Positions 16,509-19,706 of a DNA stretch of 64,000 nucleotides are shown here, piece after piece (position 1 is the stretch's first letter; each line of letters starts with the position of its first letter). The stretch comes from an uncultured Alphaproteobacteria bacterium. Its GTDB lineage: Bacteria; Pseudomonadota; Alphaproteobacteria; RF32; CAG-239. The notes under the pieces were generated by a model. It ran no database searches and had not been told where the DNA came from. It saw nothing but the letters and a program-made list of their open reading frames with translations. The stretch is taken from positions 5,041 to 69,040 of the forward strand of contig CALXTU010000004.1 in assembly GCA_944391495.1 (NCBI GenBank), written 5' to 3'. The position numbers and the translations under genes were made by a program.

Positions 16509-17930
16509 ATGAAAATCAATAAAAATTTAAGCCTTTTTCTGTTGTGCCATTTGCTTGTCTGGTCGGTTCTGCCGATACTCCTGCGCCCCAATCTGCCGAT
16601 GGACAGCGCCGAGGCTCTGGTCTGGGGCTTTATCGGCGAATGGGGAACCAACAAACATCCGCCGGTTTCCGGTTTTTTTGCCAATCTTATTTATCAGCTG
16701 ACATCATCACCGGCCTCGCTTTATGTTTTGAGCCAGCTGTTTGTTGTCGCCGGCCTTGCTTATGTCTATAAACTGGCGCGTTTGTCTTTGCCGGAGCAAA
16801 AGGCGCTGATTGCCGCGCTGATTCTCGAGGGTGTTGCTTATTACAGCCTGGTCACGCCGGAATACAACGTGAATATCATCGCGCTGCTGTTATGGCCGGC
16901 GGCGGCTTATCATTTTTATTGCGGCGTTAAACACAACCGGCTGACGGATTGGCTGTTGTTCGGGTTGTTTGCCGGCCTGAATGTCCTGACCAAATATGTT
17001 TCCGGAATTTTGCTGTTGTGTCTGGCCGCTTATCTGGTTTTGACCAAACCGGGCAGGGCGTGTTTCCGGTCGTGGAAGCTTTATGTTGCGGCGGCAGTTG
17101 CCCTGGCGGTTGTTGCACCGCATATCATCTGGCTGTGGCAGCACGACTGGTTTGTGCTCGATTATTTTTTGGCGCGTTCCGGCGGCGGCAAGAGCTATCC
17201 GTTCGGCCTGGCGCATCTCATCTATCCGCTCAAATTCATCGGCGCCCAGATTTTGACTTCGGCCTTTGCCTGGCTGGTTTTGCTGGCGGCGCGCCGTTAC
17301 AGTCCCAAAGAGGCCGTTGCCGTTTCCGCGGCAGACCGCACGTTTATCTTTTTTGCCGGTATTTTGCCGGTGCTGGTTATGGCAGCAATATCACTGGTTT
17401 TCGGCATCAAGCTCAAAAGTATGTGGGGGTCGCCGGTTCTTTATATGCTGGGTATTGCCTTTTTTGTCTGGCTGCCGTTTGATATCCGCAAGACTTTTCG
17501 GCCGCTGCTCAAGGTCTGTTATGCGGCGCTGGTGTTGTTTGCCGCAGCGTTTTTGCTGCAGTGTCTGCTGACCGACAGCGCCAAATTCAGGCTTGATGCT
17601 GCTGACTTCACCGCTCGTGTCGGCGGCGAAAATTATGCCTATGTCGGCGGCAGTGTCTGGCTGGCCTCAACCGTCGGCGTCTATGCCGCCAATCATCCGG
17701 CCGTGTTGTTTTTGATGTCCCCGGCGTCCAATCCGTGGATTGATATGGCCGATGTCGCCGCCAAAGGCATTTTAGTGGTTGAAGAAAATCCGGCCGCTTA
17801 TCAAAATTATCAAAAAACCTTTGCAAATTTGCCCGAACCTGAAGTATATTTGCTTAAAGCAACAAACATCTTGGGCCAAAACAGGGAATATAAGCTGTAT
17901 TACGGCACCATCACGGGAGAAAAGAAATGA
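16509..17930 (+). CDS. GT39/ArnT-family polytopic glycosyltransferase (LgmB-like)
   Basis: More than 10 TM helices with ArnT/PMT-like architecture. Overlaps the following GT2 gene. Confidence 0.7.
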   Translation: MKINKNLSLFLLCHLLVWSVLPILLRPNLPMDSAEALVWGFIGEWGTNKHPPVSGFFANLIYQLTSSPASLYVLSQLFVVAGLAYVYKLARLSLPEQKALIAALILEGVAYYSLVTPEYNVNIIALLLWPAAAYHFYCGVKHNRLTDWLLFGLFAGLNVLTKYVSGILLLCLAAYLVLTKPGRACFRSWKLYVAAAVALAVVAPHIIWLWQHDWFVLDYFLARSGGGKSYPFGLAHLIYPLKFIGAQILTSAFAWLVLLAARRYSPKEAVAVSAADRTFIFFAGILPVLVMAAISLVFGIKLKSMWGSPVLYMLGIAFFVWLPFDIRKTFRPLLKVCYAALVLFAAAFLLQCLLTDSAKFRLDAADFTARVGGENYAYVGGSVWLASTVGVYAANHPAVLFLMSPASNPWIDMADVAAKGILVVEENPAAYQNYQKTFANLPEPEVYLLKATNILGQNREYKLYYGTITGEKK

Positions 17931-18877
17931 AAGACAGCATCAGTGTGGTCATCTCCGCCTTTAACGAGGGCGAGAGCATCAACGAGCTCTACAAAGAGCT
18001 GTCCAAGGTTGTAAAGAGCCTGCCGCTCAAAAATTATGAGCTGATTTTTGTTGACGACGGCTCAACCGATGACACTTATGTCAAATGCCGCAAACTGCAG
18101 CAAAAAGACAAGCATGTGCGCATTGTGCATTTTAAGCGCAATTTCGGCCACGAGATTGCCATGACCGCCGGCATGGATTATGCCAAAGGCGATGCGGTTG
18201 TCTTTATGGACGCTGATTTGCAGCATCCGCCGGTTTATATTAAAGAGATGGTCAAATACTGGCAGGAGGGCGCCGAGATTGTTTTAACCAAACGGGTAGA
18301 CAATCAGGCAACGTCAAAGTTTTATGATTTCTGCGCCGCCGCATTCTATAAAATTCTTAACTTTTTGTCCGACACCAAAATTCCGGCAAAAACGCCGGAT
18401 TTCCGCCTGATTGACCGCAGTTATGTTGATTTTCTCAAAAAGTTCAGCGAGCACGACCGTCTGTTTCGCGGGCTTTTGTCCTGGGCAATGCCCAATGAAA
18501 ATGTCAAGGTGATAGATTTTGTCGCGCCGGAGCGTTTTGCCGGCACTTCAAAGTATAATTTCCGCAAGTCTTTGGCGCTGGCCTTAAACAGCATTGTCCA
18601 GTTTTCGACCAAGCCGCTGCGGCTGTCGATTTACCTCGGACTGTTGACGGCGTTTATTTCCGGCCTGTTGGGATTATATGTCATTATTGAGCATTTTATT
18701 TTGCGGCACCCGACACCCGGCTATGCTACGATTATGACCACGGTTGTGTTTATCGGCTCGGTGCAGCTGATTGTTTTGGGAATTATCGGTGAATATATCG
18801 GCAAAATTCATATGGAGGTTAAAAAACGTCCGCTTTACATAGCCGAGTATAAAGACGGAGAAGATAAGAATGCTTAA
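17927..18877 (+). CDS. GT2 polyprenyl-phosphate sugar transferase (ArnC/LgmA-like)
   Basis: GT2 DxD core (FVDDGSTDDT...FMDADLQHPP) plus two C-terminal TM helices. Confidence 0.8.
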   Translation: MKDSISVVISAFNEGESINELYKELSKVVKSLPLKNYELIFVDDGSTDDTYVKCRKLQQKDKHVRIVHFKRNFGHEIAMTAGMDYAKGDAVVFMDADLQHPPVYIKEMVKYWQEGAEIVLTKRVDNQATSKFYDFCAAAFYKILNFLSDTKIPAKTPDFRLIDRSYVDFLKKFSEHDRLFRGLLSWAMPNENVKVIDFVAPERFAGTSKYNFRKSLALALNSIVQFSTKPLRLSIYLGLLTAFISGLLGLYVIIEHFILRHPTPGYATIMTTVVFIGSVQLIVLGIIGEYIGKIHMEVKKRPLYIAEYKDGEDKNA

Positions 18878-19706
18878 AAAAATTTTTAATGCTGATGATT
18901 TCGGTATTTCGCCGGGAGTTAATCAGGCGATAGCCAAAGCGCATAAAGAGGGCGTTCTTAATTCGACCAGCATTATGATAAACCTCAAATATGCGCCGCA
19001 GGCCATTGAACTGGCCGGGCAGATGCCGGATTTAAACATCGGCCTGCACGCTAATCTGACCAACGAAATGCCGGTTTTATCGCGGCACCGTATTCCGCTG
19101 CTGGTGGACGAACGCGGCAAATTTGCCCACGGTTTTGTTGATCTGGCGTTGCTGTCGGTATTGCATCCTCGGGAGCTTAAACGTCAGGTCAAAATCGAGG
19201 TAAAGGCGCAGATTGAAAAAGCCCTGGCTGCCGGTATCAAGCTGACGCATCTTGACTCGCACCGTCATATTCATATGATACCCGGTATTTTCAAGGCCTT
19301 TCTGGAACTGCAGCAGGAATATAAAATTCCCCGCCTGCGGTTCGTCAATGAAAACCCATGGCTGACGATAAAATCAACCAAGGGATACGAATGGCTTAAG
19401 GACGGCGGTTTGGTAAAAAATCTGGTGCTGGTTTCCTGTGCCATGCTCAATAAACTGCTCTGGAAATACAAGTCCGACACATATTTTTACAGCATTATCA
19501 ATACCTGTAAAATCTCGCGCGACAAGCTCAAGGATATAAAAATTCCCGCCGGTTATCAGGCGGTTGAGGTCGGCATTCACCCTGGTATGCCCTCGGTTGA
19601 CCGCGAATATCTGGCAGATGTCTTTGACCGCAGCATTTTAAAAGACTGGCGGCAAAAGGAGCTTGAAACCCTTTTGGACAAGACGGTAGAACAAGAGTTT
19701 AGCTGA
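18870..19706 (+). CDS. YdjC/ChbG-family carbohydrate deacetylase (LgmC-like)
   Basis: An ADDFG...H...D...H signature of the YdjC family. Overlaps the previous gene. Confidence 0.7.
   Translation: MLKKIFNADDFGISPGVNQAIAKAHKEGVLNSTSIMINLKYAPQAIELAGQMPDLNIGLHANLTNEMPVLSRHRIPLLVDERGKFAHGFVDLALLSVLHPRELKRQVKIEVKAQIEKALAAGIKLTHLDSHRHIHMIPGIFKAFLELQQEYKIPRLRFVNENPWLTIKSTKGYEWLKDGGLVKNLVLVSCAMLNKLLWKYKSDTYFYSIINTCKISRDKLKDIKIPAGYQAVEVGIHPGMPSVDREYLADVFDRSILKDWRQKELETLLDKTVEQEFS

Follow-up and report, generated by a model that had tools for sequence, protein, structure and literature searches.

Three genes on the forward strand occupy positions 16,509–19,706 of the window, the 64-kb stretch of DNA from an uncultured gut alphaproteobacterium that was analysed here. 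They encode a GT-C membrane transferase, a GT2 glycosyltransferase and a YdjC-family deacetylase, and are accompanied by the following features:

16,420–16,456, + strand: strong intrinsic-terminator-like hairpin (16-pair stem, then a T run)
16,509–17,930, + strand: GT-C membrane transferase, PMT_2 family (473 aa; PF13231, E = 2e-32)
17,927–18,877, + strand: GT2 polyprenyl-phosphate sugar transferase of the GtrB/ArnC/DPMS type (316 aa; PF00535 Glycos_transf_2, E = 3.5e-36)
18,870–19,706, + strand: YdjC-family (ChbG/HpnK/NaxD-type) carbohydrate deacetylase (278 aa; PF04794, E = 4.9e-60)
19,777–20,694, + strand: DkgA-like aldo/keto reductase (PF00248, E = 5e-53), 71 nt 3′ of the YdjC gene
20,760–21,707, − strand: lpxK (PF02606, E = 8.8e-85; TIGR00682, above its cut-off)
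21,708–22,967, − strand: waaA/kdtA (PF04413, E = 1.2e-56)
22,973–23,710, − strand: DUF374 gene (PF04028, E = 2.9e-20)
30,202–31,158: GT8 gene (Pfam), adjoined by a weak GT2 match

The three ORFs of the trio are translationally coupled, the GT-C and GT2 genes sharing 4 nt (ATGA) and the GT2 and YdjC genes sharing 8 nt. The earlier note had described three overlapping genes ending in a YdjC-family deacetylase; the coordinates of the ORFs proved exact and the deacetylase family was confirmed by Pfam. Such tight coupling argues that the three products act in one pathway. On the 5′ side, the hairpin is the predicted terminator of an upstream outer-membrane-protein gene and, judged from its sequence, marks the 5′ boundary of the transcription unit of the trio. 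On the 3′ side, no terminator-like site was found between the YdjC gene and the aldo/keto reductase gene (19,706–19,777). The reductase gene, present in most of the closer relatives, is lacking in two related loci (L005 and L019) and throughout the distant ones. It was therefore rejected as a core part of the module, and its product is probably a passenger outside the pathway.

The upstream outer-membrane protein (265 aa) has no Pfam match, and its structural model is a 12-stranded barrel that most resembles the FapF and COG4313 channels. It was considered as a lipid A-modifying enzyme of the PagL, LpxR or PagP type and rejected on both grounds; a channel-like barrel adds no support for a connection with lipid A. 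The lpxK and waaA genes, which show that the organism makes 4′-phosphorylated Kdo-lipid A, adjoin the locus, and this supports a pathway directed at that lipid. However, they run convergent to the trio, as does the DUF374 gene, and are not co-transcribed with it; moreover, the lpxK–waaA adjacency is limited to closer relatives, the loci in which the GT-C protein is at least about 64% identical. Both points weigh against the lipid A reading.

A Pfam scan of about 58 ORFs, essentially all of the large non-overlapping ORFs of the window, revealed no ArnA-, ArnB- or ArnD-type domain and no equivalent of ArnE/F. The claim that the locus lacks ArnA and ArnB and stands apart from the arn pathway thus holds for the 64-kb window. 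Hopanoid-biosynthesis (hpn-type) domains were likewise absent among the scanned ORFs. When two GtrA proteins of related loci were used as tblastn queries, no gene for a GtrA-like flippase was found in the window, which counts against the pathway.

A polyprenyl-phosphate sugar transferase

In the GT2 protein, DDGS occurs at residue 43 and the DAD motif spans residues 95–97, and the C-terminal part holds two hydrophobic segments (residues 235–253 and 269–287). It can be aligned over its full length with GtrB (5EKP; E = 1.4e-70, 241 bits) and with ArnC (E = 8.9e-34, 120 bits), and is 30% identical to the E. coli ArnC protein. These end-to-end matches, the DAD motif and the paired hydrophobic segments are as the proposed pathway would require of its first enzyme. 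The description of this protein as ArnC-like is loose, GtrB being the nearer relative; against the NCBIfam model for ArnC it scored 139.9, below the cut-off of 529. Its best NCBIfam match was PgfS, from streptococcal Pgf protein glycosylation, at 281.3 bits. This score is under the curated cut-off of 500, and the PgfS assignment was rejected for that reason.

That the GT2 protein is closer to GtrB and PgfS, which belong to systems for O-antigen and protein decoration, than to ArnC argues against lipid A as the acceptor and raises two other readings. In the first, the same three-step chemistry would place a hexosamine (HexN) on the LPS core, Kdo, O-antigen or a capsule-like glycan, in the style of GtrA/GtrB/GtrC. 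GtrB is the best solved relative of the GT2 protein. Systems that combine a GT2 enzyme, a flippase and a GT-C enzyme also act on O-antigens and other glycans, and such three-component systems have been presented as a common route by which sugars are added extracytoplasmically to bacterial glycans (PMC11127046). The GT8 protein and the adjoining weak GT2 match might both act on the LOS core, which would also suit this reading. In the second, the GT-C protein would be a protein O-glycosyltransferase, similar to PMT or PgfM, that takes the sugar from its lipid carrier to periplasmic or surface proteins; the PgfS match is in its favour, with the reservation that the score lies so far under its cut-off.

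A soluble deacetylase with intact motifs

No membrane segments were predicted in the YdjC protein. The Asp and His motifs of the family are kept (NADDFG, residues 7–12; GLH, residues 58–60; DSHRH, residues 129–133), and all three are aligned in the match to PDB 2I5I (E = 7.5e-19). The intact motifs favour a functional deacetylation step in the pathway. Among NCBIfam models the best match was HpnK, at 154.7 bits against a curated cut-off of 232.6, and an assignment as HpnK was rejected on that score; the ChbG model was also below its cut-off. The matches listed in the search for YdjC homologues were close relatives only.

HpnK was also the commonest annotation among tblastn matches on plasmids and chromids. 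Together with the NCBIfam result, this could point to a role outside LPS, in which the YdjC and GT2 proteins act on a different membrane lipid, for example a hopanoid (as in the HpnI/HpnK-type formation of GlcN-bacteriohopanetetrol) or some other glycolipid, while the GT-C protein has no connection with them. We consider this highly improbable. The HpnK score is under its cut-off, the GT2 protein has the architecture of GtrB and ArnC with two C-terminal hydrophobic segments, no hopanoid-biosynthesis domain is found among the scanned ORFs, and this role would not account for the invariant coupling of the GT-C gene to the other two in 80 loci.

The GT-C protein has an ArnT-like fold in its structural model

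The N-terminal domain of the GT-C protein is helical and embedded in the membrane; from approximately residue 375 it is followed by a soluble C-terminal domain of the alpha/beta type. Invariant alignment columns define the conserved motifs of the protein: D32-x-x-E35, W45-G-T-N-K49-H-P-P52, E118-x-N-x-N122, K162-Y163 and P204-H205. In the ArnT protein of C. metallidurans, the lipid A phosphate is positioned by Asp55/Arg58 and Asp158/Lys203 (PMC8306577); D32/E35 and E118/K162 are candidate counterparts of these residues here. An AlphaFold (AF2) model was obtained with a pLDDT of 94 and a pTM of 0.92. Among solved structures, the model was best matched by the lipid A transferase ArnT (5F15; E = 1.4e-7, TMq = 0.66); a second match, 5EZM, is also ArnT. 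OST and PglB ranked after ArnT, and PMT structures covered the model only in part (TMq = 0.32–0.47). As modelled, the fold is ArnT-like, and the position of ArnT ahead of OST/PglB and PMT supports the proposed pathway.

By contrast, comparisons at the level of sequence gave no significant similarity to ArnT. BLASTP against E. coli ArnT returned E = 0.25, and when the PDB was searched with HMMER, neither the GT-C protein by itself nor either of two family profiles picked up a glycosyltransferase, ArnT included. An hhalign comparison with the single E. coli ArnT sequence produced a plausible-looking alignment that is statistically weak (probability 1.9%) and serves as a motif hint only. K49–P51, K162 and P204 fall opposite residues of E. 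coli ArnT, and the shared Lys-Pro motif and K162 speak for the pathway. The absence of significant sequence similarity speaks against the lipid A reading and for another glycan as the acceptor. The earlier note had called this protein an ArnT-like GT39 transferase: the ArnT-like part is upheld by the fold of the AF2 model, whereas GT39 is the NCBI label of its homologues and Pfam places it in PMT_2.

Membership in PMT_2, and the rank of OST and PglB directly after ArnT, are also what a protein O-glycosyltransferase might show. Nevertheless, this function appears improbable: the cover of the model by PMT structures is partial, and no linked candidate protein substrate or accessory gene was found in any locus examined. 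Furthermore, we know of no PMT-type protein modification in which a deacetylated hexosamine is attached.

Conservation of the trio

A profile search of genome contigs with the GT-C alignment yielded matches in alphaproteobacterial genome bins only. Wherever the contig is long enough, the order GT-C, GT2, YdjC is kept at each of the 80 related loci from genome bins of gut and rumen, even though the identity of the GT-C protein drops to 35% across these alphaproteobacterial loci. A constant order over this range is expected of a working pathway and supports the one proposed here. In a more distant clade, the YdjC gene is followed by a fourth gene, of the flippase-type GtrA family; no GtrA gene is linked in the clade of the window itself. 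The position of this gene 3′ of the YdjC gene favours a pathway that uses a polyprenyl-linked sugar, and it also completes the classical Gtr architecture, in keeping with an acceptor other than lipid A. In the wider GT-C family there are also members encoded with neither a GT2 nor a YdjC gene beside them, so that the acceptor need not be uniform across the family; this weighs against the proposed pathway.

Comparison with known systems

In Bordetella, LgmA is an ArnC-like GT2 enzyme and LgmC a YdjC/NaxD-type deacetylase. LgmB has been described as an ArnT orthologue (PMC5454989, PMC11895810). [quoted passage not shown] The lgm system, which places GlcN on both lipid A phosphates, thus has three required activities, and the trio resembles it in enzyme set. 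The two differ in host (a betaproteobacterial pathogen versus an uncultured gut alphaproteobacterium) and in the length of the GT-C protein, which is approximately 55 residues shorter here (473 aa versus ~529 aa for the ArnT/LgmB protein of B. holmesii, a length worked out from coordinates in PMC5454989). They also differ in gene order, which is lgmA-lgmB-lgmC-lgmD in Bordetella and, in the same terms, B-A-C followed by the aldo/keto reductase gene in the window. Gene order is a weak criterion of lgm membership.

The same predicted combination of GT2, YdjC and GT-C chemistry is found in Francisella naxD-flmF2-flmK (FTN_0544 to FTN_0546) and with NaxD of Acinetobacter baumannii: a GT2 enzyme forms Und-P-HexNAc, the YdjC enzyme NaxD takes off the acetyl group and an ArnT-like GT-C enzyme passes the amino sugar on to lipid A (PMC2233673, PMC11279074). 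In Francisella, FlmF2 and FlmK, encoded by adjacent genes, add GalN to lipid A (PMC2233673); the substrate that NaxD deacetylates, there as well as in Acinetobacter, is Und-P-GalNAc (PMC11279074). The sugar in these two genera is GalN, and Francisella FlmK also transfers mannose. All three enzyme classes of the lipid A hexosamine systems are present in the trio: the GT2 enzyme by PF00535, the YdjC enzyme with its motifs intact and the ArnT-like GT-C enzyme by its fold.

With the enterobacterial Arn system (ArnBCADTEF) the trio shares a general scheme: the GT2 enzyme ArnC loads a sugar onto Und-P, ArnD N-deacylates it while it is bound to the lipid, ArnE/F flip it and the GT-C enzyme ArnT adds it to lipid A. 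Here, the deacylase is a YdjC enzyme, and ArnE/F equivalents are absent from the window together with the ArnA-, ArnB- and ArnD-type domains. These absences, the low ArnC-model score and the insignificant BLASTP comparison with ArnT place the window outside the Arn (Ara4N) pathway.

The likeness to GtrA/GtrB/GtrC lies in the GtrB-like GT2 protein, in a polytopic GT-C enzyme as the last step and in the GtrA-family gene of the distant operons. The trio differs in its additional YdjC deacetylase and, in the clade of the window, in the missing link to GtrA. Classical Gtr systems, to our knowledge, contain no deacetylase, and a deacetylase inside the pathway means that the sugar transferred would be an amino sugar. 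Moreover, ArnT, and no other GT-C enzyme, is the top structural match, and lipid A is the target of every YdjC-dependent lipid-linked hexosamine pathway met with in the literature searched, in Francisella, in Bordetella and in Acinetobacter alike (PMC11279074, PMC4410734, PMC4993483). Transfer of HexN to the LPS core, Kdo, O-antigen or a capsule-like glycan is accordingly a possibility that we take seriously but think unlikely.

Proposed pathway

On balance, we favour the reading in which the trio is a three-enzyme pathway that decorates the envelope with a cationic hexosamine, lipid A being the most likely acceptor. In the first step, the family and architecture of the GT2 protein suggest that it would load HexNAc from UDP-HexNAc onto undecaprenyl phosphate at the cytoplasmic side of the inner membrane, forming Und-P-HexNAc. 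As the locus has no linked gene for a 4-epimerase, GlcNAc would be the simplest choice of sugar; GlcN and GalN, each of which would add 161 Da, cannot be told apart from the sequence. NaxD serves as the model for the second step, in which the soluble YdjC protein would remove the acetyl group to give Und-P-HexN. This lipid would then be flipped to the periplasmic face, in distant relatives by the linked GtrA-family protein and in the organism studied here by a flippase whose gene may be unlinked. Finally, the ArnT-fold GT-C protein would move HexN from the polyprenyl phosphate to an acceptor at the periplasmic face. By analogy with the systems described above, this acceptor is probably lipid A, most likely a phosphate or another position of it, and the transfer would make the surface charge less negative and change recognition by cationic peptides as well as by TLR4.

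The earlier note had read the locus as an Lgm-like module for the addition of GlcN to lipid A. Its enzyme set and its logic (loading of HexNAc, deacetylation and transfer by a GT-C enzyme) are retained in this pathway, with the ArnT-like fold and the order in 80 loci in agreement, but the lgm gene order is not matched. A more tentative version, which we think less probable than not by some distance, is a lineage-wide variant of three-component glycosylation, spread over uncultured Alphaproteobacteria of gut and rumen, with deacetylation inside the pathway and no linked flippase gene in the clade of the window. Its GT-C enzyme, from a large family marked by a conserved K-H-P-P motif, would have diverged from ArnT beyond recognition by sequence and might place HexN not on a lipid A phosphate but on a dephosphorylated lipid A position, on Kdo/core or on another envelope glycan.

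If the favoured pathway is correct, widespread uncultured Alphaproteobacteria of the gut and rumen bear a cationic amino sugar on lipid A or LPS. Cationic antimicrobial peptide resistance has been linked to the addition of cationic sugars to lipid A (PMC4410734), and GlcN modification in Bordetella raises signalling through human TLR4 (PMC4993483, PMC11895810). The prediction would therefore bear on the tolerance of commensals to host defence peptides and on the sensing of their LPS. Beyond this prediction for the lineage, the result is routine functional annotation and involves no new mechanism.

The trio in cultured bacteria

Linked genes for a GT39/PMT_2 protein, a GT2 protein and a ChbG/HpnK-family deacetylase, as in the window, also occur in the cultured bacteria Shinella sp. 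PSBB067 and Variovorax paradoxus VAI-C, which lends further support to the pathway. No experimental study of either trio was found in the literature searched. The Shinella GT-C protein is 32% identical to that of the window over the N-terminal 218 residues, and the Variovorax GT39 protein is 23% identical to it from end to end. The genes run in the order GT2, GT-C, YdjC in Shinella and are divergently arranged in Variovorax.

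A candidate envelope amino-sugar modification module

Three overlapping genes, reported in the earlier note at 16509-19706, were recovered as open reading frames at exactly these coordinates, all on the + strand and with Pfam families in agreement.

Features of the module and its upstream flank (window coordinates)
15590-16387, + strand: outer-membrane protein, 265 aa, signal peptide, C-terminal ...KVLF
16420-16456: terminator-like hairpin, 16-pair stem, closing the gene upstream of the module
16509-17930, + strand: GT-C, PMT_2 family, 473 aa (Pfam E = 2e-32)
17927-18877, + strand: GT2, Glycos_transf_2 family, 316 aa (Pfam E = 3.5e-36)
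18870-19706, + strand: YdjC deacetylase, 278 aa (Pfam E = 4.9e-60)

The GT-C and GT2 genes share a 4-nt ATGA overlap (...AAGAAATGAAAG...) and the GT2 and YdjC genes an 8-nt overlap (...AAGAATGCTTAAAAA...); no terminator-like site was found between the YdjC stop and the next gene. The absence of ArnA and ArnB, also asserted earlier, holds for the open reading frames of the window scanned with Pfam.

The GT2 gives end-to-end alignments with Synechocystis GtrB (5EKP, E = 1.4e-70, 241 bits) and ArnC, the GT2 of the aminoarabinose (Arn) pathway (E = 8.9e-34, 120 bits; 30% identity to the E. coli protein). Its motifs (DDGS at residue 43, DAD at residues 95-97) and two C-terminal hydrophobic segments indicate the architecture of a polyprenyl-phosphate glycosyltransferase, and its NCBIfam scores fall far under the cut-offs for PgfS (281 versus 500) and ArnC (140 versus 529). 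Solved YdjC structures that match the third protein include E. faecalis EF_3048 (2I5I, E = 7.5e-19); the protein keeps the NADDFG, GLH and DSHRH motifs, has no predicted membrane segment and scores under the cut-off of the NCBIfam HpnK and ChbG models. Two roles to which family matches might point, protein O-glycosylation and hopanoid modification, are both unlikely, since in each case the match lies under its cut-off and supporting context is absent.

The GT-C resembles ArnT in its predicted fold

Searches with the GT-C sequence (phmmer and two family profiles) found no glycosyltransferase in the PDB, and BLASTP against E. coli ArnT, the GT-C of the Arn pathway, gave E = 0.25. By contrast, an AlphaFold2 model built from a 59-sequence alignment (pLDDT 94, pTM 0.92), in which a helical membrane domain is followed from about residue 375 by an alpha/beta C-terminal domain, retrieved C. 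metallidurans ArnT first in Foldseek against the PDB (5F15, E = 1.4e-7, TMq 0.66; 5EZM), followed by OST/PglB and ALG9, with PMT giving only partial matches. The relationship to ArnT is thus invisible in sequence and seen in the modelled fold.

Invariant or near-invariant GT-C residues are D32, E35, W39, G46, K49-H50-P51-P52, E118, N120, N122, K162-Y163, P204-H205, W208, R223 and H236. In a bridging alignment of nine sequences including E. coli ArnT, P51, K162 and P204 do not vary, and K49, which is not invariant by the criterion of that alignment, aligns with the Lys of the ArnT FEKP motif. In ArnT, Lys85 binds undecaprenyl phosphate (Und-P) and Lys203 pairs with Asp158 (PMC8306577); the aligned GT-C lysines would fit these two positions. 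The GT-C family is large: an exhaustive profile search returned 17,656 cluster representatives at E <= 0.001 and 1,746 at E <= 1e-30, and at least one member occurs by itself, with neither a GT2 nor a YdjC neighbour.

Conservation in gut and rumen relatives

Gut-metagenome contigs carry an identical GT-C protein; one of them is a 143-kb scaffold in ENA ERZ28614173. Scanning species-representative genomes with the two most conserved GT-C family peptides, WGT[NT]KHPP and LKSMWG[FS]P, yielded 80 loci at 36-85% identity, all from uncultured genome bins of gut (human or animal) or rumen origin that carry the label Alphaproteobacteria or a less precise one. The order GT-C, GT2, YdjC is kept in each locus whose contig is long enough (tblastn with the window proteins). 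Identity to the window spans 61-95% for the GT2, 40-88% for the YdjC protein and 35-85% for the GT-C; the predicted cytoplasmic-face GT2 is far better conserved than the YdjC protein or the predicted periplasmic-face GT-C (window against loci L005-L084). This unevenness could reflect a fixed donor and a diverging acceptor or acceptor environment.

The loci form two clades. In that of the window, whose GT-Cs are at least about 51% identical, the module consists of three genes. The distant clade (35-43%) adds a fourth, which overlaps its neighbour and belongs to the GtrA_DPMS_TM family (PF04138; loci L025-L083 and L085-L087, for example L085 11248-11667); its product is a putative flippase. Searching the window by tblastn with GtrA proteins of related loci found no GtrA-like sequence; with no linked GtrA gene in its clade, the flippase there would not be encoded in the module.

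Genes for lpxK, waaA and DUF374 lie 3' of the module on the opposite strand, convergent and with no shared transcript. Their adjacency is confined to loci with GT-C identity of at least about 64% (tblastn, 80 loci), and the aldo/keto reductase gene that intervenes in the window is kept in most closer relatives, though not all. The upstream 265-aa protein, which has no Pfam family, is found beside the module in the window's clade alone, with a strong terminator in between. AlphaFold2 models it as a 12-stranded beta-barrel (pLDDT 84) whose closest resemblance is to the FapF and COG4313 outer-membrane channels; as this is a generic channel, a role as a lipid A-modifying enzyme was rejected.

Comparable trios in cultured bacteria

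In PLSDB, a collection that also contains some chromids and mislabelled chromosomes, tblastn located the trio in two cultured bacteria; the gene association therefore extends outside the gut lineage. In Variovorax paradoxus VAI-C, the gene for a 516-aa GT39 is divergent from those for a GT2 and a ChbG/HpnK-family deacetylase; the GT39 aligns with residues 3-473 of the window GT-C at 23% identity, an alignment that takes in the C-terminal domain as well as the KHPP, TKY and APH motifs, and the GT2 and deacetylase are 36% and 26% identical to those of the window. In Shinella sp. PSBB067, GT2, PMT_2 and YdjC genes are tightly packed on one strand, with 32% identity for the GT-C (N-terminal 218 residues) and 26% for YdjC. 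We found no published characterisation of either trio in the literature. Separately, a conjugative Pantoea ananatis plasmid (NZ_CP099537.1; locus L092, 2852-6398) encodes a GT39 that in its N-terminal half shares 30% identity with the window GT-C; nearby lie genes for PAP2 phosphatase, DsbA-family, Bor-family and Ail/Lom outer-membrane proteins, a group that may be a mobile envelope-remodelling set.

Proposed pathway and acceptor

We propose that the GT2 would make Und-P-HexNAc (HexNAc, N-acetylhexosamine), which the YdjC enzyme would deacetylate to Und-P-HexN; this would be flipped to the periplasmic face, via GtrA where present, and the GT-C would there move HexN onto an acceptor. Such a scheme is consistent with precedent. 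Addition of glucosamine (GlcN) to Bordetella lipid A needs lgmA, lgmB and lgmC, with lgmD dispensable (PMC4993483), and lgmB is an ArnT orthologue (PMC11895810, PMC5454989); flmF2 (FTN_0545) and flmK (FTN_0546) add galactosamine (GalN) to Francisella lipid A (PMC2233673), with NaxD, a YdjC enzyme, acting as the Und-P-GalNAc deacetylase in both Francisella and A. baumannii (PMC11279074).

The earlier note had proposed a Bordetella-type lipid A glucosamine pathway, which is supported in part. The enzyme families and the ArnT-like fold of the model stand, but we infer the donor sugar, the deacetylase substrate and the acceptor. With no epimerase gene linked, GlcN would be the simpler choice of sugar, though it may be GalN instead. 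The acceptor is most likely lipid A, because the YdjC-dependent examples found all target it, ArnT is the best fold match and lpxK is present. The main rival keeps the same chemistry and directs it to core, O-antigen or another glycan: the GT2 resembles GtrB, a complete GtrA/GtrB/GT-C architecture occurs in the distant clade, such three-component systems are described as common (PMC11127046), and the neighbouring lipid A genes are convergent, with an adjacency that is shallow. Against this stand the precedents for lipid A and the fold match to ArnT, and on balance we moderately favour lipid A, while a generic Und-P-HexN pathway is considerably more probable than that specific acceptor. Judged by its enzyme set, the module would belong, as a new member from an uncultured gut lineage, with envelope amino-sugar modification systems of a known kind, an annotation that is good and testable but would not surprise a specialist.

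Other features of the window

A GT8 glycosyltransferase gene (30202-31158, - strand) adjoins a 314-aa open reading frame with a weak GT2 match (30202-32104 together). The pair may encode LOS-core glycosyltransferases, which would be relevant if the module's acceptor were core and not lipid A.

With a GC content of 0.30-0.37 against about 0.5 in its flanks, the stretch 12000-16000 is a possible acquired island; it contains a Fic protein (12393-13019) scoring above the NmFic adenylyltransferase model cut-off and an orphan 312-aa open reading frame (13399-14337, - strand). Another low-GC stretch (2-4 kb, GC 0.37) holds a protein (1432-2214) with a Tlde1 domain, which we take to mark type VI secretion L,D-transpeptidase effectors; the two open reading frames that follow (region 1432-3925) lack a family match and could encode immunity proteins.

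An unbroken fatty-acid synthesis and acetyl-CoA carboxylase run occupies 42571-54169 on the - strand (fabG, fabD, fabF, fabH, accC, accB, fabI-like, NMO/FabK-like, accD, accA and fabZ/fabA); to our knowledge, clustering of all acc subunits with fab genes is unusual for Proteobacteria. Beyond it, a 540-aa protein (54516-56138, + strand) has a central phage-lysozyme domain (residues 289-414) between large flanks that match no family.
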